The notes under the pieces are model-generated. The model saw only the letters and a list, made by a program, of their open reading frames with translations, did no database searches and was not told where the DNA came from. From the NCBI GenBank assembly GCA_964471235.1, contig CAYYGL010000001.1:5315-69314 (forward strand): a stretch of DNA of 64,000 nucleotides, in the 5' to 3' direction. Numbering within the stretch: the first letter of the stretch is position 1; every line of letters starts with the position of its first letter. The DNA comes from an uncultured Calditrichaceae bacterium. Its GTDB lineage: Bacteria; Calditrichota; Calditrichia; RBG-13-44-9; J075. A program made the position numbers and the translations under genes. Positions 31,204 to 45,806 of this stretch are shown here, piece by piece.

Positions 31204-31752
31204 CTATTCCTCACTTTCGTCTAAATATTTTCCCGGGTTGCGATTAAAATCCTCGGATTTGCCTTTTGGAATACTCAACGACTCCCAGGCGTCGCCGGTA
31301 AAGTGTTTCGCCAGGAAAACGATTTGTCCCACATGGTAAGCATAGTGAGAGAGCTGTCGAAGCAGCGCCTGGCTAACCAACAGCGGCTCCCCGCGAATGG
31401 TGATGGTACGGCTTAAATCCGCTGGCGTCAATGTTTCCAGGGTATTGGTTAGAATTTGCCATCCGGTTTCCCATTGCTTATGGAGGTTGTTAAAATCATC
31501 ATCTTGGGTAATTTCAAACTCCATATCCCGGTGACGATCCGGCTTCTCACCGTCGGTAGTAAGAAAATCGCGCCAGCGGGATCGCATATTGCCGGCAAGG
31601 TGTTTCATGATCACCGCAATCGAATTGGATACCTCCTCATTCAGGGAGTCGAACATCTCTTCAGTGTTTACCTGGGATATCGCTCCATCTGCCAGTTGAC
31701 GCAGCCGGGAAAATTCCCGACGAATATCGGTTAAGAATTGCTCCAGATTCAT
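31204..31752 (-). CDS. DinB-like/DUF1572 family protein, translationally coupled to the upstream helicase
   Basis: HYAYHVGQIVFL C-terminal motif, as in the 20367 paralogue. Its ATG overlaps the helicase TGA (ATGA) at 31749-31752. Confidence 0.55.
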   Translation of the reverse strand: MNLEQFLTDIRREFSRLRQLADGAISQVNTEEMFDSLNEEVSNSIAVIMKHLAGNMRSRWRDFLTTDGEKPDRHRDMEFEITQDDDFNNLHKQWETGWQILTNTLETLTPADLSRTITIRGEPLLVSQALLRQLSHYAYHVGQIVFLAKHFTGDAWESLSIPKGKSEDFNRNPGKYLDESEE

Positions 31753-34121
31753 ATTTTACCTCCGGTTGGTTTGTCGATAACGGGCAGGGATTTCCGTTTG
31801 TGCAGGGGCACTCCCTGCGAGTGAAATATCGTTATCTGTTGTGTATTGAATTCCAGCAAATAGTGTTGAATGATTAATTCCGCAAGATGTTGAATTCTTT
31901 CCACATCGGAAAAAGTGTTGATAGTCAACTGTTCCGGTAGGGCATAAATTTTTTGCCCGTCGGCTTTTAATATTTTTGGCAAAATCTCCGGATGGATAAT
32001 GAGATGATACAACTGCTGGGCAGATTTAAAGCGCAGTGTTTCCAGGTAAAGGCGATCCCAATCCACCACATCCCAGATATCTTTGTTGACAGCGACCGGT
32101 TTTGCACGGGATACTCCGGAGTTTCCTACTCCCTCTGATGTGATTTGTGAAAAAACCGGACGGATATCAACCCGGAGCTTTTTCAGGATGTTATTGTTCA
32201 CGGAAACTTCTACTGCCGGTGCGTTCCCGTTTTCTGAAGAAACAGGTGGTGTTATTGCCGGCTCCAAAGCAGGTGTGGAGGATGTGCCGGGTCGATCCGT
32301 TCGCTTATCTCTTCCGTTTGTCTGAATCCCTTCTTTGACAATGGCGTTCAAAAAGGCGTTCATATAATCTGCGTTCAGTCCGTAAATATAAAGTGTTTGT
32401 AAGCAGGCGATTTCCGGGCGGGCAGTGGCTTCTCTCCTCAGAGAAAAATCTTTTCCTTTCAGGCGAACCCCTCTACCGAATAGCTGAATAATCTGGGGAC
32501 CTTCTCCTTTTCCCATGTTCATCAATACCATGGTCGAGACCCGCCAGCTATTCCACCCTTCGATAAATTTTTTTGCACCGATAAGCAGGTTGATGGGAGA
32601 ACGGGCAGTATTGATATCCTCAAACAGGGAGGCGGAAAAGTAATCCGGTTTCACCTCGATTCCATTGCTTGCCAGCAGTTTTTTGAGCGGCGCAACATTT
32701 CCAACATGGATAATGCCGAAATAATTCCCGGCTCCGTTGGTTTTCAATCCTAATTCTCCATCGCCATGTAAAATTTCGTAAACTTCAAGTTCCCCGCTCC
32801 CATGAAATACCAGCCGGAATAACTTCTCCTGTTGTGCCTGCCGATCATCCGCTGGGGAATTAAGCAAGTCACCCACAGGGAGATTTGCCGGTATCGCCGA
32901 TAGAATCCATTGGATGTGTTCCCATAATCGCCCCGGATCATGAAGAATTTTTTTCGGGGACATCGTGATTGAGAGGATGTCGGAATCCTGCTTTTTTCCC
33001 GCCACCCGGCTGCCCACAAACACCCAGAGAGGTTTCTCAAGCTGGTAAGTGTTTATATCGATTTCTCCGGACTGAAAAAGGGAAAGCTGCCGGTAAAAGG
33101 TTGACAGTGCCCCGGACAGCACCCCCTGTTGCACTTCCGGTGTGTAGTGATCTTTATGAAGGTTCACCGCCTGGAACGCCTTGCCATACCTGTCTTCATA
33201 GAAAAAACGGTAAGAAAAATCAAAAATAATGGATTTGGCATATTCCGAGAGTAGAAAGCTATTCTTGCCGATTACCTGGGCAAAAGTAGCACTGTATTCG
33301 ATAATTATGCCCTGGGTTGCCAGTTTTTCCCGCAGGGTCTTCCAGCGTTTTTCCTCGGATTTCTGCCCCTTATGCCCCTCATCGATGAAAATGAGGTTTT
33401 TCCCTTCAAAAGCCGCGACATCCACCCTTACCCCGCCGGAAAGTTTTTGGTCCATCAACTTGTGAATGTCGATGACCAATACCTCATTTCGGCGGGTATA
33501 AAGGTTGTCCGGGTTGCCGTCATATAACTTTGCTGGTATGCCGCTCAGTTGATACTCCTGCCAGTGTTGACGGGACATACCTTCGTTTGGGGTGATCAGC
33601 AAAATATTATCCCAGGTGAAAGGGGTATAGTGCAGCACCTGCCAGTAGTTGATGTGCATAATCAAAGTTTTACCGCTGCCGGTTGCCATCCAGTAGGCAA
33701 TTTTGTGTAGGTCCGGTTCATGAAATGGCGGAATTGACTGCGAATGACGTCGATTAAATTCTTCTAAAAACAAATTTAAGTCGGATAAAAAGCCGGAGAC
33801 ATCGGTAAACAACCGGTCAAAATAGATTTCGCTGAACAGGGCTGCCAACTGCTGGAAGTATTTCAATCGGAATTGGGGTTGTTGACGATTGGCGCGCAGA
33901 CGGGATTGGTAGGAGTCAATCGATTGTTGGTAGTTGAATAATTTTTCCGGTGATAGTTTAGAACGCCCGCTTTGTTGTAAAGCATCCCAGAACGTATCAT
34001 GGAACTTAACGGATGAAACAGGGGAGGGGAGAGGGAGTATTGCTCTCAGGCGAGCAAACTCATCCACCCCGAGTAAATCCAGGAAAAAATGAAACAGGAC
34101 CAGGTGTTTTTGTAATTTCAT
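31749..34121 (-). CDS. SF2 helicase, ResIII-type (type III restriction Res-subunit-like) with DEGH box
   Basis: Motif I WMATGSGKT, motif II IFIDEGH, motif III YSATF, and motif VI QLFGRGVRL. It has a ~145-aa N-terminal and ~240-aa C-terminal extension without an obvious PD-(D/E)xK motif. Confidence 0.75.
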   Translation of the reverse strand: MKLQKHLVLFHFFLDLLGVDEFARLRAILPLPSPVSSVKFHDTFWDALQQSGRSKLSPEKLFNYQQSIDSYQSRLRANRQQPQFRLKYFQQLAALFSEIYFDRLFTDVSGFLSDLNLFLEEFNRRHSQSIPPFHEPDLHKIAYWMATGSGKTLIMHINYWQVLHYTPFTWDNILLITPNEGMSRQHWQEYQLSGIPAKLYDGNPDNLYTRRNEVLVIDIHKLMDQKLSGGVRVDVAAFEGKNLIFIDEGHKGQKSEEKRWKTLREKLATQGIIIEYSATFAQVIGKNSFLLSEYAKSIIFDFSYRFFYEDRYGKAFQAVNLHKDHYTPEVQQGVLSGALSTFYRQLSLFQSGEIDINTYQLEKPLWVFVGSRVAGKKQDSDILSITMSPKKILHDPGRLWEHIQWILSAIPANLPVGDLLNSPADDRQAQQEKLFRLVFHGSGELEVYEILHGDGELGLKTNGAGNYFGIIHVGNVAPLKKLLASNGIEVKPDYFSASLFEDINTARSPINLLIGAKKFIEGWNSWRVSTMVLMNMGKGEGPQIIQLFGRGVRLKGKDFSLRREATARPEIACLQTLYIYGLNADYMNAFLNAIVKEGIQTNGRDKRTDRPGTSSTPALEPAITPPVSSENGNAPAVEVSVNNNILKKLRVDIRPVFSQITSEGVGNSGVSRAKPVAVNKDIWDVVDWDRLYLETLRFKSAQQLYHLIIHPEILPKILKADGQKIYALPEQLTINTFSDVERIQHLAELIIQHYLLEFNTQQITIFHSQGVPLHKRKSLPVIDKPTGGKI

Positions 34122-34289: not shown

Positions 34290-35111
34290 TCACGTTAACT
34301 TATTTAAAAGCCAATCGCCCAGGAATTTGTCAAGTGTCATTTTGTGCATCTCATTATATCCAAACAAAATTCTCTGTTCCTTGCGATGGGGGTCGAAGAA
34401 TGCCGGCGAGCGCACCGCTAACTTTCTCTCCTGCATAAAATTGTAAATATAGCAGGTGGTTGTGTCCTGTTCCGGTAAAAACATCAGGTAAAAGCGAAAA
34501 TTTTTCAGCATCTCCGGGTTAACAATATCCGTAACAATTTCCCGAAACGAAAGATATTGCCCATGCCCGATGCTGCCGCCTCCCTGAGTATAGAGCTTTT
34601 CTTCCAGCAATGTCAACCGATTATCGGCTTCGTGAAAAATCAGAAAATCAATGTCAGTGCTGGCAACCCTGCCGTACATATTCAGGCGTAAAAATTTGCT
34701 TAATGACGATACCCGGGCACTTTCCCTGATCGTTGCGGTGCTGGGTTGCCACTCTTCTTTGCCATCACACTTTAAGACTTGTAATAAAAATTTTGCCAGA
34801 TGGTCCGGATTCTCAAATGACTTTTGGGTGGCGGCTTTTAAGCTTCGGATATGGATTCGGTCCTCTTCCCAGAAGATGTTTCCCAGTCGCAATCCAGCGG
34901 TAAAAAATGGTGCTATCTGCAGTAAGGCATTGTCCTCAAACTCCCTCTCACTCTTACATTCTTTCAGCAAAATATATCGGGAAGCCGGATTCGGATTAAT
35001 CCGATGGAGGCAGGTGGCAAAGAACAAATTGCGAAAAATCCGAAAGTCAAAAATTGCATTCAAACGACTGGGACGGGTGCCATAAATTTCATCTTTTACC
35101 GGTTTTGCCAT
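34290..35111 (-). CDS. Hypothetical protein (273 aa), first gene of the AT-rich block
   Basis: A long ORF co-directional with its neighbours. It is AT-rich with no recognised motifs. Confidence 0.45.
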   Translation of the reverse strand: MAKPVKDEIYGTRPSRLNAIFDFRIFRNLFFATCLHRINPNPASRYILLKECKSEREFEDNALLQIAPFFTAGLRLGNIFWEEDRIHIRSLKAATQKSFENPDHLAKFLLQVLKCDGKEEWQPSTATIRESARVSSLSKFLRLNMYGRVASTDIDFLIFHEADNRLTLLEEKLYTQGGGSIGHGQYLSFREIVTDIVNPEMLKNFRFYLMFLPEQDTTTCYIYNFMQERKLAVRSPAFFDPHRKEQRILFGYNEMHKMTLDKFLGDWLLNKLT

Positions 35112-35175: not shown

Positions 35176-35709
35176 TTAAGTTAAATTGGGTACCCAAACT
35201 GAAAAATATTTTAGCCTAAAGTCAATATCCATTTTTATTCCGGCATCCACAAGGCAGTTAATACCTAATATGGGGCGCGCTTCTTTCCATTCATTACGGT
35301 AAGAATGATTGAAAATAGCTGCTCCACCATTCACATCAATGCGATAAGGATAGTTAGCAAAATTAGGCAAATTACTGCACAACCAGAGCGTTAAATCACG
35401 CGTGGGTTTTCGAGTCATGCTGCCATCCGAAAGTTCTACATCCACGAGACCGCCGATAGGACCACTGAGTGAAATACCTACTTTCGAAAGAGTCTCCTTT
35501 GTTATAATGGCATGGCTACAACCGGTATCGATCATAAATTCTATTGCCGGGGCTCCCATGGGAGGTGTATCAACAAATGGTTCGGAAATGAGCATCAAAA
35601 CCCGAATTTCGTTAAAAGATTTAAGGGATTGGTCACTGGATCTGAATTTAGCAAATGGCATTTTATGAATAAACAAGTTCATGATCTTATCCCTCCTGGG
35701 TGACAACAT
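35176..35709 (-). CDS. Retropepsin-like aspartic protease (clan AA, single-lobe, presumably dimeric)
   Basis: The catalytic FMIDTGCSHAII (hydrophobic-hydrophobic-D-T-G-S) and the downstream ILGINCLV match the retroviral-protease ILGxDxL flap/closing motif. 177 aa. Confidence 0.6.
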   Translation of the reverse strand: MLSPRRDKIMNLFIHKMPFAKFRSSDQSLKSFNEIRVLMLISEPFVDTPPMGAPAIEFMIDTGCSHAIITKETLSKVGISLSGPIGGLVDVELSDGSMTRKPTRDLTLWLCSNLPNFANYPYRIDVNGGAAIFNHSYRNEWKEARPILGINCLVDAGIKMDIDFRLKYFSVWVPNLT

Positions 35710-36382
35710 TTATGTATCTCCGTAAGTCAAGAGGAGGAGGTAATGGTTCAATTCGTCTTACCAAAATTTCATTCAAATTATAATTTTCTTTTTTTAAGAC
35801 TTTATATATTTCTTTTTTTGACGGTTCAATAGCTATTCGAGATTCTCCTCGGTAGGCTACCCATTTACCGGGTGCGGTTTCCATAAGCAATGGAAGTTCT
35901 TGTTGAAATTTTTCCCATCCGATTGATTGGAATTCAGATAGTAACAACGTATCGAACCGTTTTGTGATACGTTCTATCGTAAAATCGATGAGTCGATCTA
36001 TCTCCCGGGTTTGAAAAGGGGGAGATTCTTTAACTTGTTTTAATAAGTTCAAATCTTCAACTTCACCACATTCACACATCCACCACAGCGAAGCAATGAA
36101 ATCTTCTTCTGTTGCCGGAGAAACTAAATCTAACCGGCGAGTGAGCTTCTCATAAGTGAAGGGAATAATATGCCATTCTTTTTCAATTTTTTGCCATTCG
36201 TTATTGCTGCAATGTTTGGCGCTGTGAATTATGCCTGAAAGGCAACTTCCGATTAATGTGGCGACCTGGCGTTCGAAGTCCAATTCTTTTTCCGGAAGGA
36301 TATATTTTTCGCTTACTTGGATTGCCTGATGAAGATTGCTAAAGAGTTCCTGAACTCCCGGGGGGTTATGAAGTGAGATCAT
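35687..36382 (-). CDS. Hypothetical protein (231 aa) overlapping the retropepsin-like gene start by 23 nt
   Basis: The ORF shows operon-style overlaps on both sides. It has a Cys-containing segment WWMCECGEVED and no recognised family. Confidence 0.45.
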   Translation of the reverse strand: MISLHNPPGVQELFSNLHQAIQVSEKYILPEKELDFERQVATLIGSCLSGIIHSAKHCSNNEWQKIEKEWHIIPFTYEKLTRRLDLVSPATEEDFIASLWWMCECGEVEDLNLLKQVKESPPFQTREIDRLIDFTIERITKRFDTLLLSEFQSIGWEKFQQELPLLMETAPGKWVAYRGESRIAIEPSKKEIYKVLKKENYNLNEILVRRIEPLPPPLDLRRYINVVTQEG

Positions 36383-36384
36383 TT

Positions 36385-36804
36385 TTATCTTTTTCCCTTC
36401 TCATTTTTGTTTAATATGTTGTTAATCTCTTCAACCAACTCAAACTCTAATAAGTTTATTTTTCTGAAGAACCAACAATTTTTTTCTGTATAAAATTTCT
36501 CAGCGATGTTCGGATCAGCTACATGGGTAAAAATAATCACCGGAAGAGTTTTATTAACCTCCCTGATTTTTTCATAAAAACGAATTCCGGTACGAAATCC
36601 CATCTGTGTGTCATCCAGGTTAAAGCTCTTTCCTGGCGGCATCATAATATCCAAAATTATTAACTCAATTCTTTTAGAATGTTCTGTAAGAAAATAAAGA
36701 GCATCATCCACATCCGTGCATAATTTAACTGAATAACCGGACTCTTCCAATTCCATAATATAGTTCTCCATTCTTCTTTTTTCGTCATCAACGAAAAGTA
36801 TCAT
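36385..36804 (-). CDS. Stand-alone response-regulator receiver (REC) protein
   Basis: ILFVDDE and LIILDIMMP (phospho-acceptor Asp) and a conserved T and K further on. 139 aa, no output domain. Its start overlaps the kinase stop by 17 nt. Confidence 0.75.
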   Translation of the reverse strand: MILFVDDEKRRMENYIMELEESGYSVKLCTDVDDALYFLTEHSKRIELIILDIMMPPGKSFNLDDTQMGFRTGIRFYEKIREVNKTLPVIIFTHVADPNIAEKFYTEKNCWFFRKINLLEFELVEEINNILNKNEKGKR

Positions 36805-39800
36805 GGGGGAACTCCTTTAATCTTTTGGGAATTAAAACATGAAATTCGGTTGGCTTATACCGGTTTTTTAAAATTAAATCCCCCCCCAACTCCTGCATTG
36901 TTTTTTTAGCGATTGGTAATCCCAATCCAGTGCCTGCCACATCTTTATTTATCGCTTCCGGCGTGCGATAACCTTCTTCAAAAATTTTTTCTTCATAACT
37001 CTTACGAATCCCAATACCCCAATCTTTAAACTTGATAATATAATACTCCCGGTCTTCATCTAAATCAATTCGGATCGCAAATTTTTCAGGGTCATCTTCT
37101 GCGTATTTTATCGCATTTGTCAATAGGTTGTGAACAACAGAATTCAATTTGGAACGATTTACGTAAATTTTTATTTTATGGGCATCTTTTACGTTAAAAT
37201 AAATTTTTTTGTAATCAAGCCCCTTACCCACTACCAACGGATTGAACTGCTTAATTGACTTGATGATAATATCACGGTAAACAATGGTGCGTTCCTTTTT
37301 AGAACTCGGCGATTCACCGCCCAGTAAATGTTGTATCTCCTCTATTTTCAATTTTAATATTTCACAATCTGTCAGTATATCATCAAGCTTGGCTTTATAA
37401 AGGTGAGATGGGAGGTTCGGCAACCTTCGTTTTAAGAAAGATGTGTTGCTTCTGATGCCACCAAGTGCAGAATTAAATTCATGTTGAATTTTTTCCAATA
37501 ATAGTTGTCTGTGTTGCTCCAGTGCTTTTACACTATATTCCACTAATCCTTTTAAGATTTGAACATCTCGTTCATAAATATATTTACGATAACCTTTTTG
37601 ATAGCCTGCTTCTACCGTTCCCATGACCTGGTTCTTTTTTGCGGTTGCAATCATCGGAATATAGACTCGTAACAAGCGATCATGATGGAACCGCTTATAA
37701 ATATGAGTATCATATCTTTTGTCATCACTCCCCGGTGCCTCAATTTGTCTATTCCTGACCACATCTGCCTGGATATCGTTACTGTTCAAGGAGTGAATTG
37801 CTAATTGTTTGAAGATTTCTTTTTCTTCATCCGGGATCCCAACCACATATTCAGTTTGAATCCTATTTAGCTCTGGAATGACAAACGAAATGTTTACATA
37901 TTCATATCCCAACGTTTCGGTAATGGCTTTTGAAACAATTTGAACAATTTCAGTTCGGTCACTGGTGCCAACAATCTCCTTCTCAAATTGTGCCATCTGG
38001 GTTAATTTCTGGTCGAAATCTAATTTCTCGAACATAATAGCAGCATGACGGGCTAAAGACCACAAAATCACCTCATCGGATTTGGAAAATGCATTGAGGG
38101 CAGGGCTTTCAATATTCAACACACCAATCGGTTTTGACCCCCATCGAATTTCTTTTCCCACCCGAACTTCAGCATTGGAAATCACTATCGGAACTGCTAA
38201 TTCGGAACGGGTATCATCCCAACATTTAACGTAAATATCCTTCCACTCACTGCTATGGACATTTCCCACTCGGATAGGTCGTTCGGCGGACAAAGCCTTC
38301 CCGGTAATTCCCCGACCTAATTTAAGAGAATGTTTTCGGGGAGGTGAGCCACTGTATTCAACCAGATGTAATAAGCCGGTTTTAAAATCCAGCCGACTCA
38401 CCCAACCTCTTTCCGAGTCTACCAATTTTAATCCTTCATCCAAAACCAACCTCAACAGTTCGTTGACATCTCGTGTTTCTGCCATTTGTTTAATAACTTT
38501 ATTAAGCTTTTGAAACCGGCGTCTGCTGTTTAAATTTTCAATGGCAACCGAGGTCTGTAAAGCCAGGGTTTTGAAAATGTTTTTATGCCATTTGGTAAAA
38601 TGACGTTCATGTTGGAACGAATATACTTCAATAATGCCAATTACTTTTTTTCCATAGGATAATGGCATTGCCAGCATGGATTTCCAACCTAAATTTTTAA
38701 CTAATCTGTAATAAGGATGAGTCTCTATGACACTGGCATCTTCCAGATAGTAAGGTTTGTTTTTCAGTAAAAAGCGGGTTAAACATTTACTATCATTTCG
38801 TAGTACCAAATCCTTAAGGGGGGCTCCCTGCCCTTCCGGGATACTGTATTCTGAAACTACGAAACCATCTTTATTCTTATCATGTAGCCACACAATACAG
38901 ATTGGTTCGCTCATCAAATCTTGGGTTAAATTCACCACCTTTTTTAATAATACATCCAATGATTCTAAATGAGTCATCAATTCCGGTAGCTGGAGCAATA
39001 TATCGTTTAGCATGGCTTGCTCAATCGCCAGAGCTACTTTCTGAAGCACTTTTAGTAGGGATGGAAAATCATCCGAGTTAAAAGCATCCGGTTTACTTTT
39101 TCCTACACTCACCGTAGCAATAACAGCATCTCCTGACTTGATAGGAGCACAATAAATTGAATCACCAATATTAAACCCGCCATATTTGGGGTCAGTGGAA
39201 GCATTGCGACAGTAATAAGGTTTTTTAGTTTTTGCAACATATCCTGCAATACCCTTTTCTATAGGAAACGAATGTTGAATTTGAGTGCCAATCCGGGGAT
39301 ATATGGCTTTAAGTTCCAGTCGATTGGTGGCTTTATTCCAAATTCTCAAACAACACGAATCGGCGTTGGTTATTTTTGCACAAGTTTCGACAATTCGGCT
39401 CAGCTTTTGCTGAAATTCCCCGGCATCTACATTTTCATAAGAGATTTCAGCGGAAGTATCTAACAATTGAGATTGGTATCGTAAAATTTGACTTTCGCGC
39501 ATTAATTCGGCTTTCTGGATTGAGAATGCAGCGTGATTGGCAAAAATACCGAATAATTCCTTTTCCCAAACTTTAAAATGGCGTTTGGTTTTGGTATATA
39601 AATTAAGCATGCCAATTAACTTCTCTTCTCCAAACCACATTGGGGCACTCAAAAGCGATATCCAACCTCTCTGTTTTGCTTCGCGAGGATGACTATACAT
39701 AGAGTTCGGTTTGGTAACGTCTTCAAGATACCCAACTTTTTTACCGGTTAAATGTTGTTGAATCCCTGGAAAATGAATATCCAATTCCAGTTGTTTATAT

Positions 39801-40540
39801 TCTTCGTCCACTTCTCCAGTGGTTGCAACAATCTTCAATTTGGTTAAGCTGGCATCCAACATCCAAATGATACAGATTGGAACGGAAAGTAATTCGGAGG
39901 CTTTTTCAGAAACTATTTGTAAAAATTCATGAGGTGTTAAATTCTGCAATTCACGGGATAATGAATACAATATGCTTAGAGTTCTTTCCAACATTCGTAG
40001 ATAATCAAACCTTTCAATAGTCAACACAGCATGTCTAGCAAAAGATTCGAGAAGATGAATTTCATCCGGGGGAAATTTCTGTAGTGTGTTGGAAAAATGA
40101 TTAAAATAGCCGATGAGATGATTGTCACTTTTTAAAGGGTATGATAAAACTGATTGTAAATCATACCTTACGGCTATTTTGGGATTAGCTACACCTTGAC
40201 CAGATTTTTGTAGATTATACTTCTCTATAATTTCTCCGGAAGCGAATAAATTATAATCAAGAGAAGTCGATTTACCTGATGAACTGTTTGTTCTGGTATT
40301 CCTGAACGTGTAATATGCATATTTTTTAAAATGATTATCAAAACCGGCACAGGCGGCAAGTTTCAAAGTCTTGGTTTCTTGATCAATAAGAATGAGTGTG
40401 CAGGCGTGGGAATGAAGGGCTTTTTTACCCAATTCTGTTAGTCGATTCAGTGCCGACGCTTTATCTTTATATAGAATCGGTACTTTACTTAACTCATTTA
40501 TGAGATCTACAAAATCGATTTGTTGAGTAGAGGTCCCCAT
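36788..40540 (-). CDS. Sensor histidine kinase with multiple tandem GAF domains (about five) and C-terminal HisKA + HATPase_c
   Basis: 1250 aa with repeated GAF-like modules. It carries an H-box (…QHEFNSALGGI…), N-box NLLTNAIKYA, G1 DWGIGI and G2 GTGLGLPI. There is no TM segment, so it is cytoplasmic. Confidence 0.85.
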   Translation of the reverse strand: MGTSTQQIDFVDLINELSKVPILYKDKASALNRLTELGKKALHSHACTLILIDQETKTLKLAACAGFDNHFKKYAYYTFRNTRTNSSSGKSTSLDYNLFASGEIIEKYNLQKSGQGVANPKIAVRYDLQSVLSYPLKSDNHLIGYFNHFSNTLQKFPPDEIHLLESFARHAVLTIERFDYLRMLERTLSILYSLSRELQNLTPHEFLQIVSEKASELLSVPICIIWMLDASLTKLKIVATTGEVDEEYKQLELDIHFPGIQQHLTGKKVGYLEDVTKPNSMYSHPREAKQRGWISLLSAPMWFGEEKLIGMLNLYTKTKRHFKVWEKELFGIFANHAAFSIQKAELMRESQILRYQSQLLDTSAEISYENVDAGEFQQKLSRIVETCAKITNADSCCLRIWNKATNRLELKAIYPRIGTQIQHSFPIEKGIAGYVAKTKKPYYCRNASTDPKYGGFNIGDSIYCAPIKSGDAVIATVSVGKSKPDAFNSDDFPSLLKVLQKVALAIEQAMLNDILLQLPELMTHLESLDVLLKKVVNLTQDLMSEPICIVWLHDKNKDGFVVSEYSIPEGQGAPLKDLVLRNDSKCLTRFLLKNKPYYLEDASVIETHPYYRLVKNLGWKSMLAMPLSYGKKVIGIIEVYSFQHERHFTKWHKNIFKTLALQTSVAIENLNSRRRFQKLNKVIKQMAETRDVNELLRLVLDEGLKLVDSERGWVSRLDFKTGLLHLVEYSGSPPRKHSLKLGRGITGKALSAERPIRVGNVHSSEWKDIYVKCWDDTRSELAVPIVISNAEVRVGKEIRWGSKPIGVLNIESPALNAFSKSDEVILWSLARHAAIMFEKLDFDQKLTQMAQFEKEIVGTSDRTEIVQIVSKAITETLGYEYVNISFVIPELNRIQTEYVVGIPDEEKEIFKQLAIHSLNSNDIQADVVRNRQIEAPGSDDKRYDTHIYKRFHHDRLLRVYIPMIATAKKNQVMGTVEAGYQKGYRKYIYERDVQILKGLVEYSVKALEQHRQLLLEKIQHEFNSALGGIRSNTSFLKRRLPNLPSHLYKAKLDDILTDCEILKLKIEEIQHLLGGESPSSKKERTIVYRDIIIKSIKQFNPLVVGKGLDYKKIYFNVKDAHKIKIYVNRSKLNSVVHNLLTNAIKYAEDDPEKFAIRIDLDEDREYYIIKFKDWGIGIRKSYEEKIFEEGYRTPEAINKDVAGTGLGLPIAKKTMQELGGDLILKNRYKPTEFHVLIPKRLKEFPHDTFR

Positions 40541-40617: not shown

Positions 40618-41397
40618 TCAGTTACCAGGGAAAATTAAAGGTAGTTCAACATTAAGTTGGTTTGTAGTTGTTGAAAACGTACCAACTTTTATCTTAAGCG
40701 AATCAAATTCAAAAAAGACACTTAATCCTTCAGAATCGGTTCCCGTTAAATTCTGATTTGGTATTAATAGATGAAGGGTTAACTTACCCTTTTCGTCAAT
40801 GGAAAATCGTACAATTTGAAAGTGGATGTCACAGTGTGTAATTTCCGTCACGACACGTACTTTGATATGATGGGGAATAAAACATCTATCATCTAAAATT
40901 TTTTCTTTCTGCAAATGATAAATCCTGGCACTTGCTACACGCATTACCGGAAAAGGGGTTGGTTCTACATCAGAGATTGGTTCTACATCAGAGAATAGAG
41001 AGCTTGTAGTAGATTCGCATACTAACCATTTATAAACTTCATGTAATATTTCCCTGGCAGATGTGTCATTTTGTTTTGCGCGGTTTATCAAATCGATTAG
41101 ACTACTTTTTCTTGCTTCGTTTAGTTTTTCAGCCATTTCAATTTGTTCAACTGTTTTTTCCGCAAGTGATTCAATTTCCCTTTGCGAGAAAGTCGGTTCT
41201 TTTTCAGATTTAAATGGCTCAAATAATAACTCGCCTGCAACTTCCGTTTGAATCGCCTTTGCAATCTGTTTTCGAAGTTTCGGATACCTACCAAAATAAT
41301 AATCAATGTTTTTAGATCCACCAGAACGTTTTGCCCTGATGTATTCATCGACGATTTTAGTAATCTTATCAGGTTTATAGACACTATTCCGGCTCAT
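40618..41397 (-). CDS. Hypothetical protein overlapping the sigma-factor stop (candidate anti-sigma / partner protein)
   Basis: The 14-nt overlap with the sigma-like gene is typical of sigma/anti-sigma pairs. It contains a perfect 18-bp tandem duplication (40959-40994, SDVEP repeat) and no recognised domain. Confidence 0.4.
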   Translation of the reverse strand: MSRNSVYKPDKITKIVDEYIRAKRSGGSKNIDYYFGRYPKLRKQIAKAIQTEVAGELLFEPFKSEKEPTFSQREIESLAEKTVEQIEMAEKLNEARKSSLIDLINRAKQNDTSAREILHEVYKWLVCESTTSSLFSDVEPISDVEPTPFPVMRVASARIYHLQKEKILDDRCFIPHHIKVRVVTEITHCDIHFQIVRFSIDEKGKLTLHLLIPNQNLTGTDSEGLSVFFEFDSLKIKVGTFSTTTNQLNVELPLIFPGN

Positions 41398-42710: not shown

Positions 42711-42971
42711 ATGTTCTTAGAAGGTTCATTCAGAAGTTTTTTGGCAGGAAATATTTTTGGGTTGCTTTGGGGCTTCTCCGGTGTTATCGGGAGACGACTT
42801 TTGCAGATTTTTTTTGCTGTCTGTGTAATTGTGGTTATTGTTTTTATTGTTTTTGAGGGAATGGATGATGTCGTAAGTCTTTTCGAGTGGATGTTTGACC
42901 AATTACTAAATTATGTATACTTTGCCATGGGCGTAGTGAATGGTATGTTGATCTCCTATCGGCGCACATGA
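42711..42971 (+). CDS. Possible small hydrophobic protein (86 aa) in the AT-rich leader region, opposite strand
   Basis: Two predicted TM helices. It lies inside a ~700-bp AT-rich non-coding stretch and could be spurious. Confidence 0.2.
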   Translation: MFLEGSFRSFLAGNIFGLLWGFSGVIGRRLLQIFFAVCVIVVIVFIVFEGMDDVVSLFEWMFDQLLNYVYFAMGVVNGMLISYRRT

Positions 42972-43094: not shown

Positions 43095-45806
43095 TCAAAA
43101 CACAGGCTGACTGCTTTCTTTCATCACTCCTTCAATACTCTCCACACCCGCTAAAGCACAATCGCCATTGATAAAAACACGCCTGTCGGAATATTCCCGG
43201 AGAATGTCGGTAAGAAACTGTTTCTCTGCCTCATAATCCAGGTTGTCTGCCACACGCCAGATTGTGACAACCGGCTGTTCTTGCAGTTTCCCGGTTACAA
43301 ATAAATATCGACGGTTCTGATGGGGGCGAGCAAACACCTGTTCCACCTCTATCCCCAGCCAATTTACAAATGTTTGCACCAGGTCGATTGTGGCGGTTGA
43401 GGAACCCCCGGCGCGGAACAAATTCAACTTGTATTCAAACGGATTGCGCATTCGGTTGATATTCAAAAACGTTGGGCTTTGCCGGGTCTCGCTGGAGAGC
43501 ATATACCGGACGGTGTAGTCCGGCAACTCAGTTAACATGTTCGAAGAATTGCCAAATGTTATGTTTTCAAGCGCATCTTCAAATTGTTCCAATCCCTGGT
43601 AACAGAAAAACCCGCCGCCTTCCCATCCTAAATCCCGGGAAATTTTTCCCGGATCGCCATGCAGCACTTTTTTCATTCGCGGTAAGATGACCGAGTAAAA
43701 ATGCTCTCCCATCTCCACCCCCACCCATTTTCGTTTCATTTTCTGCGCTACGGCAATCGTAGTGCCGGAACCCAGGAAGAAATCCATCACCCATTCCCCG
43801 GGCATGGTGGAAGATTCTATCACACGTTGCAGTAAGGCTTCGGCATTTTCGGTGGCAAAATGATGCCGTTGGGCATACCCGGGAATGTCCAACCACTCAT
43901 TGCCGACCATCTCGCTATCATATAACAACTCCGGCACTCCTTTTATCGTATTCCCGAAGCAATCCACATAACTTTTTTCCGGGTTGATACGCACTTTATT
44001 GCGGGCGATCAGCCGGTCGATTCGCTGCTGAGAAAGCGCCCAGCGGCGGTTCCGCGGGGGATAATAGGTTCTTCCCAGTATTTTCCGGGGACGCTCATCC
44101 TTGCGGGGAAAATGGAGCAGAGGGTACCAGCGCGGGGGGGTCGGGCGTTCCACCGGGTTCGGCTTAAACCGGGGGGATTTGGCATATAAAAACAGAGTCT
44201 CGGTTTTCACGGTAAACTGGGTATCCACCTGCTGTTTTGCCAGGGTGCGATTCACGATAATCTCATTGCGGAAATTATCTTTCCCGAAAAGACGGTCCAA
44301 CATCAAACGGGCATACATGGTTCCATTGTAGTCGCAACGCAGAAACAAGCAGCCATCGGACCGCAGTGATGAATGAGCCAGACTTACCCGGTTCTCCAAC
44401 ATGGTTATCCAGGTGGAATCTTTATACCCCACTTTATACAGGTAATCCGCTTCCTGTTCTTTATTAAAGGGGGGATCAATATAGATGCATTTGATTTTCT
44501 CTTTCAAAAGCGGTGAAATGGTATTTAAGGCAGTCCAGTTTTCACTGTTCCATACGTAACCATCAATGATGTCGGCTAACCGATGGTTTGCTGATAGTCC
44601 TTCCAAAAGCTTTACCTTAAACGACTCATCGAAGAAACGGGTATCAATCGGAAGGTGCTGCCATGTTGGTTGATATAGCAACATTTCCAGTGTTTCCCGT
44701 ACCTCGCTGTCGAAGTGAAAACCGAATAAATCCCGCCATTCCCTTAATTGTGCTGTATTATCGGCAAGCTGTTCTACCACCCACCCCCACAGGTCATTGC
44801 CAGCATAGTGTTGAATGTGGCTGAGGCTGATGACATAATCTGTGCTGAGCACGAAACTTCTTTTCTCCCAGACCTGTTTTTGAAAATCCTCGATTTGCCC
44901 CAGCATTTCAATGACTTTAGCAGCAATGGTATGTACGATCGTTGCCAGATGAAGTTGATAGCGAAGATTGCTCTCGGTCAGAGTGGGGAAATTGTCAAAA
45001 TTGAAAATCTCGGATTTGATATAAAAATCCAATTCGGTTATCAGAAAATTTGCCAGATCCTTGTGGATGAAATAATCCTGTTCATTTTTTCGGGTAAAAC
45101 GGGATAAGTGCTCCGCCAATGTTCTCAGGAAATCATCCGCTACATTGCCGGGTAGGGGGAGTTGGGGGAGTGAGTTTCGAAAAGCTTCCAGAACAGAGGC
45201 ATTGATGTGTTTCTGGGTGATTTTTCCGAAATGCTCCCTCTCCGCTTCTTTCGGGGATCGAAATTCAAAGTAAAAATGAAGTTGGTTTTCCTGAATTTCC
45301 CATGCCGGCCGGGAAAGGAAAAAATATTGTTTATGAGTGCTTTTTATGTTCCCATGAAAAGCCTCTGCCTGCACGATCCGAAATGAGATTTCCCATCCAT
45401 CGTGGGTAAAGCGGTAGCTCTGGAAAAACGGGCTGGATTTAATAAAATACTGATCGTGATTGATCCAGTAGAAGGCAATTTCTTCCCCGTTATAAGGCAG
45501 GATGTACTTATGTTTTTTGCCATAACGCCGTTGGGGAATAAAATCTCCCCCATGATAATAGCGAGAGAAAAAACGAATGAGGTGATTGTAGACCTCGCCC
45601 TCCGGTTCAGCAGCTTTCGGGGCGTCCCGGGTGAGTTTCGGTAAATGCTCCTGAATAAATCCAACCAGATCCTGATTGATAAAGCGCAGAATTTCTTCCC
45701 GCCGATAGCGGATGATTCGATAGATTCCGAAATCCAGATCCGGTTCATTCAGATAGAAAAGGGATTGCAACAGGTTCAAAAATTGTTCTCGGAGAGGTTC
45801 GCTCAT
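43095..45806 (-). CDS. Beta-class N6-adenine/N4-cytosine DNA methyltransferase (type III Mod-like) with 440-aa N-terminal extension of unknown function
   Basis: Motif IV IYIDPPF precedes motif I WVMDFFLGSGTT (beta permutation), with ~240 aa between them as a putative TRD. The N-terminal 440 aa have no recognised motif. 903 aa. Confidence 0.8.
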   Translation of the reverse strand: MSEPLREQFLNLLQSLFYLNEPDLDFGIYRIIRYRREEILRFINQDLVGFIQEHLPKLTRDAPKAAEPEGEVYNHLIRFFSRYYHGGDFIPQRRYGKKHKYILPYNGEEIAFYWINHDQYFIKSSPFFQSYRFTHDGWEISFRIVQAEAFHGNIKSTHKQYFFLSRPAWEIQENQLHFYFEFRSPKEAEREHFGKITQKHINASVLEAFRNSLPQLPLPGNVADDFLRTLAEHLSRFTRKNEQDYFIHKDLANFLITELDFYIKSEIFNFDNFPTLTESNLRYQLHLATIVHTIAAKVIEMLGQIEDFQKQVWEKRSFVLSTDYVISLSHIQHYAGNDLWGWVVEQLADNTAQLREWRDLFGFHFDSEVRETLEMLLYQPTWQHLPIDTRFFDESFKVKLLEGLSANHRLADIIDGYVWNSENWTALNTISPLLKEKIKCIYIDPPFNKEQEADYLYKVGYKDSTWITMLENRVSLAHSSLRSDGCLFLRCDYNGTMYARLMLDRLFGKDNFRNEIIVNRTLAKQQVDTQFTVKTETLFLYAKSPRFKPNPVERPTPPRWYPLLHFPRKDERPRKILGRTYYPPRNRRWALSQQRIDRLIARNKVRINPEKSYVDCFGNTIKGVPELLYDSEMVGNEWLDIPGYAQRHHFATENAEALLQRVIESSTMPGEWVMDFFLGSGTTIAVAQKMKRKWVGVEMGEHFYSVILPRMKKVLHGDPGKISRDLGWEGGGFFCYQGLEQFEDALENITFGNSSNMLTELPDYTVRYMLSSETRQSPTFLNINRMRNPFEYKLNLFRAGGSSTATIDLVQTFVNWLGIEVEQVFARPHQNRRYLFVTGKLQEQPVVTIWRVADNLDYEAEKQFLTDILREYSDRRVFINGDCALAGVESIEGVMKESSQPVF

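Follow-up and report, generated by a model that had tools for sequence, protein, structure and literature searches.

A 64,000-nucleotide stretch of DNA from an uncultured Calditrichaceae bacterium, referred to here as the window (GTDB lineage Bacteria; Calditrichota; Calditrichia; RBG-13-44-9; J075; assembly GCA_964471235.1, contig CAYYGL010000001.1, positions 5,315 to 69,314 of the forward strand), carries a gene for a 168-residue protein with an Asp-Thr-Gly (DTG) motif. UvrA encoded in the window shares 77-80% identity with UvrA from Calditrichia metagenome-assembled genomes (MAGs), which places the organism in the Calditrichota. The DTG protein belongs to an unannotated family of clan AA that has an obligate partner of the DUF5678 type and, in the branch to which the window belongs, is linked to a two-component system. 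It is moderately probable that the protein is a cytoplasmic, homodimeric aspartic protease governed by its DUF5678 partner and that, in this branch, the complex of the two forms the output of a pathway made up of a GAF-domain histidine kinase and a receiver.

The gene boundaries differ from those of an earlier sequence-only reading, in which the DTG protein was 177 amino acids (aa) long and its gene overlapped the upstream 231-aa gene by 23 nucleotides (nt). Both open reading frames (ORFs) are present (35176..35709 and 35687..36382, minus strand), and both genes are real, with homologues of 34-52% identity in other metagenomes. The overlap did not survive correction of the start: it had been proposed because the first in-frame ATG (35709) was taken as the initiation codon, and the 177-aa ORF is an upstream extension of a 168-aa gene. 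The N terminus of all 36 homologues in a broad alignment is the residue equivalent to M10 of the longer ORF and opens a strongly conserved M-x-L-F-I-D-R-x-P segment, and independent gene calls on three other assemblies give a DTG protein of 168 aa. The actual junction consists of the partner stop codon (TAA, 35689-35687), a 4-nt gap, and the ATG at 35682, with the Shine-Dalgarno sequence of the DTG gene falling within the final codons of the partner gene (Table 1). Residue numbers below are those of the 168-aa protein, in which D52 corresponds to D61 of the 177-aa ORF.

A bare DTG triplet is weak evidence by itself; what makes the assignment solid is the predicted structure together with an invariant Asp. 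A confident AlphaFold model, for which 66 family members were used (predicted local distance difference test score [pLDDT], 91.2; predicted template modeling score [pTM], 0.87), has the single-lobe beta-barrel of retropepsins, and nearly all of the top 50 Foldseek matches in the PDB and in BFVD (predicted viral structures) are aspartic proteases. D52 is invariant both in the broad sample of 36 homologues and in a second alignment of 66 sequences from a distant clade, the two sets overlapping. G140 is likewise invariant in the first alignment and is kept in 65 of 66 sequences in the second, the exception being a truncated sequence. The sequence-only reading had tied its protease assignment to conservation of this Asp in orthologues, which held, and to the protein not falling in a non-protease family, to which none of the profiles assigns it.

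The DTG and ILG motifs of that reading are both present, as F-M-I-D-T-G-C-S and P-I-L-G-I-N-C-L in the 177-aa product, although the Ser is one position farther along than claimed (DTG-C-S, not DTG-S). Two hydrophobic residues precede the D-T/S-G triplet of clan AA (M-I-D52-T-G), and a hydrophobic-hydrophobic-Gly motif (I138-L139-G140) stands before the C-terminal helix, which spans residues 141-146 in the model. In alignments with the family profile, the DTG and LLG segments pair with DTGA and LLGM of APRc (RC1339), a retropepsin-like protease of Rickettsia conorii (PDB 5c9b, 5c9d, and 5c9f), and D52 pairs with D25 of human immunodeficiency virus (HIV) protease (hhalign E value, 0.057). A hairpin formed by strands 79-83 and 89-101, with D-G-S at its tip, is predicted at the place expected for the flap along the chain, and extra N-terminal strands precede the DTG strand in the model. 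The 168-aa protein is securely predicted to adopt the single-lobe clan AA retropepsin fold (MEROPS A2/A28/A32 type), and the retropepsin-like assignment stands. As in all retropepsins, the active form would be expected to be a homodimer, each subunit supplying one Asp; the strongly conserved terminal strands, LFIDRLP and SVWxP, are compatible with a terminal-strand dimer interface, without showing one.

The family is rare and unannotated, is missed by Pfam, NCBIfam, PADLOC, and PHROGs, and offers no pointer to a broad physiological role. A word-indexed search of 5.8 billion proteins returned no match to the DTG protein except itself, and the partner likewise retrieved only itself. An exhaustive HMMER scan of 1.84 billion representatives recovered 56 proteins at an E value of ≤1e-3, nearly all of 150-200 aa and with most of the query covered, and a profile search added 70 further members, all labeled "hypothetical" and none with a Pfam domain of this type. 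Genome contigs scanned with the close-clade alignment gave no matches, and a metagenome scan for the family found only five short contigs. Further invariant or nearly invariant positions are W100, P112, G120, and G140, together with the N-terminal LFIDRLP and the C-terminal SVWxP; judged from the alignments, these residues and both termini define the family. Sixteen sequences (e.g., P0066, P0068, and P0093) form a subclade with D-T-R-F in place of the canonical motif, reading D-T-R-F-T-G-E-A-Y-A-W-R-H-H-L. Three much larger proteins (P0054, P0055, and P0056, of 640, 1180, and 1318 aa) match the query weakly (E value of about 1e-4), in five to eight short stretches each, and may be repeat proteins that share an LWL-type strand motif.

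The gene directly upstream, which the sequence-only reading had tentatively linked in function to the DTG gene, contains a DUF5678-like domain and is the obligate partner of the DTG gene. A hidden Markov model (HMM) of the ~60-aa partner domain, made from 11 sequences including that of the window (consensus, F..LP.LL....GKWVAY.G...VA....K.E.Y..L......VVRRIEP), was run on all ORFs of the related loci for which DNA was available. Each of the 13 distinct loci yielded a single match, and in all 13 this was the ORF immediately preceding the DTG gene. The two genes are separated by 4-37 nt where coordinates are readable, and two additional loci without DNA have the identical layout. At the locus of the closest homologue (P0003, 42% identity), the protein encoded directly upstream has 360 aa and a faint DUF5678 match; at that of a distant homologue (P0066), the upstream protein of 103 aa matches partner residues 159-213 (BLASTP E value, 4e-11).

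DUF5678 (PF18929) is matched by 9 of the 11 partner domains (best E value, 2.5e-5), and a 352-aa partner homologue at locus L094 passes the 23.2-bit cut-off with 33.1 bits. The partner domain of the window itself matches PF18929 weakly (12.9 bits; E value, 0.099), below that cut-off; its E value of 2e-34 against the partner-domain HMM is to be read with the window domain being one of the 11 sequences in that model. When the PDB was searched by profile, both the partner domain and the full-length protein returned chance-level matches only (apolipoprotein E, an iron-binding protein, and a helix-turn-helix [HTH] protein with an E value of 0.39), and the literature searched yielded nothing relevant on DUF5678.

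In the clade of the window, the partner has 230-360 aa in total and includes an added, conserved helical N-terminal domain of ~150 aa. A single-sequence model of the window partner (low confidence; pLDDT, 50) is all-helical over residues 10-169 and then beta-beta-alpha-beta. The DUF5678-like domain is followed by a conserved tail, EPLxPPLDLRR, that is confined to this close clade. The partners at L094 and L100 have an extra insert between the helical and C-terminal domains, and Pfam finds two DUF5678 stretches in that of L094. The 231-aa product does contain the segment WWMCECGE, in which a Cys cluster had been proposed, but its two Cys residues align with T/I/S/A and Q/R in homologues (RWMTEQGE, RWMIERGV, WWMSERGV, WWIAERGG, and MWMAERGE), and only W, E, and G are invariant. 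The cluster, and with it a zinc site in the partner, was ruled out because the Cys residues are not conserved. A by-eye impression that the receiver at L093 ends in a DUF5678-like segment was supported by neither Pfam nor the partner HMM.

Other retropepsin-like genes occur beside the pair. At L093, a gene at 1633-2466 encodes a conventional DTG retropepsin domain (FVIDTGTD...ALGLDAL) fused to a DUF5678-like domain and lies directly upstream of the family DTG gene. In a subclade, the pair is followed by a second retropepsin-like gene, with a product of ~160 aa (ALLDTGN...WLGQDIL), at L094 (2351-2878), L100 (5221-5697), and L101 (1010-1501); these copies share 55-65% identity with each other, and the gene is absent from the window. 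A 176-aa gene occupies the same position at the P0003 locus and may be another copy. The fusion and the second genes indicate that the association of DUF5678 with the retropepsin fold is recurrent. A generalization that is conceivable, though we would hold it only tentatively, is that DUF5678 is a dedicated inhibitor or adaptor of retropepsin-fold proteases, acting here as a two-component-wired switch of a previously unrecognized kind, in which the phosphorylated receiver would release or activate the protease, and as a free-standing module resembling toxin-antitoxin (TA) or defense systems in other lineages. If true, this would be the first function for DUF5678 and the first two-component pathway with an aspartic protease as its output. 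Whether or not this holds, the invariant pairing gives DUF5678, a domain of unknown function, a concrete function that can be tested.

The two-component genes that the sequence-only reading noted around the DTG gene are a conserved part of its neighborhood. Five loci are informative, having enough upstream sequence (the window, the P0003 locus, L093, L094, and L100), and in all five a receiver and a multi-GAF histidine kinase are encoded directly upstream of the pair. Kinases similar to that of the window are also found at the P0003 locus and L100. Between L094 and the window, identity is 64% for the C terminus of the kinase, 43% for the receiver, about 40% for the partner, and 35% for the DTG protein. 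The kinase has an H-box, HEFNSALGGI, at H1020 and no membrane segment. Its gene overlaps the receiver gene by 17 nt, and the kinase, receiver, partner, and DTG genes of the window either overlap or lie 2-4 nt apart. A membrane segment or signal peptide was found in none of the seven proteins of the cassette, which extends from a sigma factor gene to a 273-aa ORF (Table 1); the whole pathway is therefore cytoplasmic.

The receiver has no output domain and must therefore act through protein contacts, and no gene set other than the partner-DTG pair is conserved directly after it. The partner may bind the protease directly and control it, most likely by keeping it inactive or by delivering substrates. 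In this branch, the partner has gained its helical N-terminal domain, and the pair has become the last two genes of an operon starting with the kinase and receiver. The GAF domains would sense an intracellular ligand, the kinase would phosphorylate the receiver, and the receiver would then contact the partner-protease complex, turning proteolysis on or off. The conserved gene order kinase-receiver-partner-protease suggests a two-component output by proteolysis rather than by transcription.

Several observations weigh against a protease under two-component control. The pair of the distant, GC-rich clade, consisting of a small partner of 86-123 aa and a DTG protein of ~190 aa encoded among unrelated housekeeping genes, occurs without a kinase; two-component control is therefore a branch-specific addition rather than a property of the module. 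The curated profiles all fall short of their thresholds: the DTG protein scores 20.1 bits with Asp_protease_2 (PF13650; cut-off, 24.3), 17.9 bits with gag-asp_proteas (PF13975; cut-off, 28.2), and 16.4 bits with NCBIfam TIGR02281 (cut-off, 57.95). These subthreshold matches are limited to ~28 residues around the DTG (55-83 of the 177-aa ORF), and only 2-3 of the 36 family members match the three profiles at all, even at an E value of ≤0.01. The Gly of the DTG is kept in 29 of 36 sequences in the broad alignment and in only 37 of 66 in the distant clade, where Arg (16/66) and Ala (13/66) replace it in 44% of members; among the nine closest homologues, which were aligned separately, three have Ala or Ser at this position. 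Active aspartic proteases almost never vary at this Gly, and a replacement there is a hallmark of inactive homologues, as in Bla g 2 and certain pregnancy-associated glycoproteins. Some members of the family may therefore not be proteases.

These same substitutions would fit a non-catalytic family in which the Asp and the retropepsin fold bind the DUF5678 partner or another ligand and the protein serves as a signaling scaffold rather than as a protease, as would the invariant positions beyond the classic catalytic motifs (W100, P112, G120, LFIDRLP, and SVWxP) and the failure of curated protease profiles to reach threshold. Such a family is nonetheless quite unlikely, given that the Asp is kept in 102 of 102 rows of the two large alignments (overlapping sets, with fewer distinct sequences). 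Pseudoenzymes usually lose the catalytic residue itself, and the window protein has canonical DTG and ILG motifs and a hairpin predicted where the flap is expected along the chain. With its canonical DTG, the window protein may plausibly be active, and its catalysis is a prediction from the motif. That the catalytic Gly has drifted to Ala or Arg while the Asp stayed fixed amounts to a natural experiment on the tolerance of the retropepsin active site.

The kinase-free arrangement also bears on a TA-like or antiphage module, in which a toxic effector of retropepsin fold, neutralized by the DUF5678 protein, would be fired by infection or stress, in this branch via the kinase and receiver. The distant clade has a TA-type layout, with an upstream gene of 86-123 aa tightly coupled to a downstream gene of ~190 aa in unrelated chromosomal neighborhoods, but these neighbors are mostly housekeeping rather than defense genes. 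Of the features typical of type II TA systems, the two-gene layout and varied contexts are seen in the distant clade; profile searches recognized no DNA-binding domain in the partner, and the pair has no plasmid or phage relatives and no PHROG match. The DTG segment weakly matches the PADLOC candidate PDC-M08B (E value, 1.5e-3), although over only 24 residues, and the partner matches none of the PADLOC models. In Sulfolobales, small retropepsin proteins are reported to occur beside type III CRISPR loci (PMC3973734), which counts for a defense role.

The surroundings in the window and at one related locus point in the same direction. The cassette is a low-GC block of ~9 kb (~34.2-43.2 kb; GC content of 0.34-0.42, versus about 0.43-0.53 in the flanks) placed exactly between the start of a Res gene and the end of a DNA methylase gene. 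Genes of these two kinds are normally adjacent, and the block resembles either an insertion between mod and res or defense-island cargo; no flanking direct or inverted repeats were found around it. At L095, on a soil metagenome contig, the cassette is followed just downstream by an Mrr_cat-NACHT gene (994-2292), an architecture that we take to be NLR-like and of defense type. With the evidence for and against it taken together, the TA-like or antiphage module is unlikely.

The sequence-only reading had proposed that the protease acts on the 231-aa protein, as a pro-protein or substrate in trans, or on an "anti-sigma-like" 259-aa protein, freeing an extracytoplasmic function (ECF) sigma factor. 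The genes for the sigma factor, the 259-aa protein, the kinase, the receiver, the partner, and the DTG protein all point the same way and either overlap or are closely spaced, the ~120-aa C-terminal extension of the sigma factor is unusual, and the partner tail EPLxPPLDLRR could serve as a cleavage or docking site; that tail, however, is conserved only in the close clade. The ECF sigma, 259-aa, and 273-aa genes have no counterpart in any related locus, and an HTH/nucleotidyltransferase (NTP-transferase) gene occupies the sigma/259-aa position at the P0003 locus. None of the three products matches a known anti-sigma or nuclease family, and the 259-aa protein, which has no membrane segment, matches no family at all. 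Without conservation of these genes beside the DTG family, the sigma/anti-sigma proposal carries little weight.

The nearest precedent would be SpoIIGA, an integral membrane aspartic protease that adjoins a sigma gene, is signal activated, and processes pro-sigma-E in Bacillus. The likeness lies in an aspartic protease encoded beside a sigma factor gene. The window protein, unlike SpoIIGA, is soluble rather than membrane embedded, and the sigma gene is absent from all related loci. A SpoIIGA-like role, with cleavage of either the partner or the 259-aa protein, is very improbable.

The preferred reading, a soluble protease governed by its DUF5678 partner, sets the DTG protein apart from the retropepsins already described. 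APRc is membrane anchored and acts at the cell surface (PMC4140852), whereas neither a membrane segment nor a signal peptide is present in the window protein. The two share only 14-18% sequence identity, and the window protein is ~40 residues longer (168 versus 126 in the matched chain). APRc is not known to have a DUF5678 partner or to be encoded in a kinase-receiver operon. The retroviral proteases (HIV-1, feline immunodeficiency virus [FIV], equine infectious anemia virus [EIAV], Rous sarcoma virus [RSV], and xenotropic murine leukemia virus-related virus [XMRV]) are polyprotein domains, and the RVP domain of Ddi1 lies within a UBL/UBA protein; the window protein, in contrast, is encoded by a stand-alone bacterial gene with a separate partner gene, and its sequence similarity to these proteases is undetectable outside the DTG segment.

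To our knowledge, no characterized bacterial clan AA peptidase is soluble and cytoplasmic with its own dedicated partner protein, and the DTG protein differs from every characterized retropepsin in location, partner, and operon. RimB and RloA, retropepsin-like peptidases of Pseudomonas (PDB 9g58 and 9g59), resemble the window protein in structure far less than do APRc and the retroviral proteases. They cleave poly-glutamate tails, have an ATP-grasp ligase and a transglutaminase-like protein as partners, and, in the case of the Rlo enzymes, are secreted (PMC12239564); the partner here is of the DUF5678 type, and cleavage of poly-glutamate is not suggested. Few bacterial clan AA peptidases have been characterized, namely, APRc, RimB and the Rlo enzymes, SpoIIGA, and some others (PMC12239564).

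Table 1. Coordinates of the DTG gene, its partner, and neighboring features in the window
Feature	Position	Strand	Basis or remark
Type III-like Res gene	31749-34121		PADLOC REase_III, E value of 1e-97
273-aa ORF	34290-35111	-	Directly downstream of DTG gene
DTG gene, 168-aa protein of predicted retropepsin fold	35176..35682	-	Start corrected
Codons I138-L139-G140, hydrophobic-hydrophobic-Gly motif of clan AA	35263..35271	-	Aligns with APRc LLGM
Codons D52-T53-G54, putative catalytic motif	35521..35529	-	Asp invariant, aligns with APRc DTGA and HIV protease D25
Partner gene, 231 aa, helical N-terminal domain and C-terminal DUF5678-like domain	35687..36382	-	Homologues of 34-52% identity
Shine-Dalgarno sequence AGGAGG	35692..35697	-	9 nt before ATG at 35682; read from sequence
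DUF5678-like domain of partner (residues about 156-215)	35738..35917	-	BLASTP, PF18929, partner-domain HMM
Stand-alone receiver (REC), 139 aa	36385..36804	-	Pfam Response_reg, E value of 1.1e-13; stop 2 nt before partner start
Soluble histidine kinase, 1250 aa, five GAF domains	36788..40540	-	Pfam GAF (five) and HATPase_c
259-aa soluble protein	40618-41397	-	Overlaps sigma stop by 14 nt
ECF-type sigma factor, 334 aa	41384-42388	-	Unusual ~120-aa C-terminal extension
N6/N4 DNA methylase gene	43095-45806		

Promoter and terminator scans gave background-level results. An 18-nt stretch is tandemly duplicated within the 259-aa gene (40954-40989). The 273-aa ORF has no Pfam, NCBIfam, PADLOC, PHROG, or PDB match; read by eye, its segment TDIDFLIF...LLEEK (D-x-D...E-E-K) gives an impression reminiscent of PD-(D/E)xK nucleases. 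The 700-nt gap between the methylase and sigma genes holds an 86-aa, hydrophobic-rich ORF on the opposite strand (42711-42971, plus strand), which may encode a small membrane protein or be spurious.

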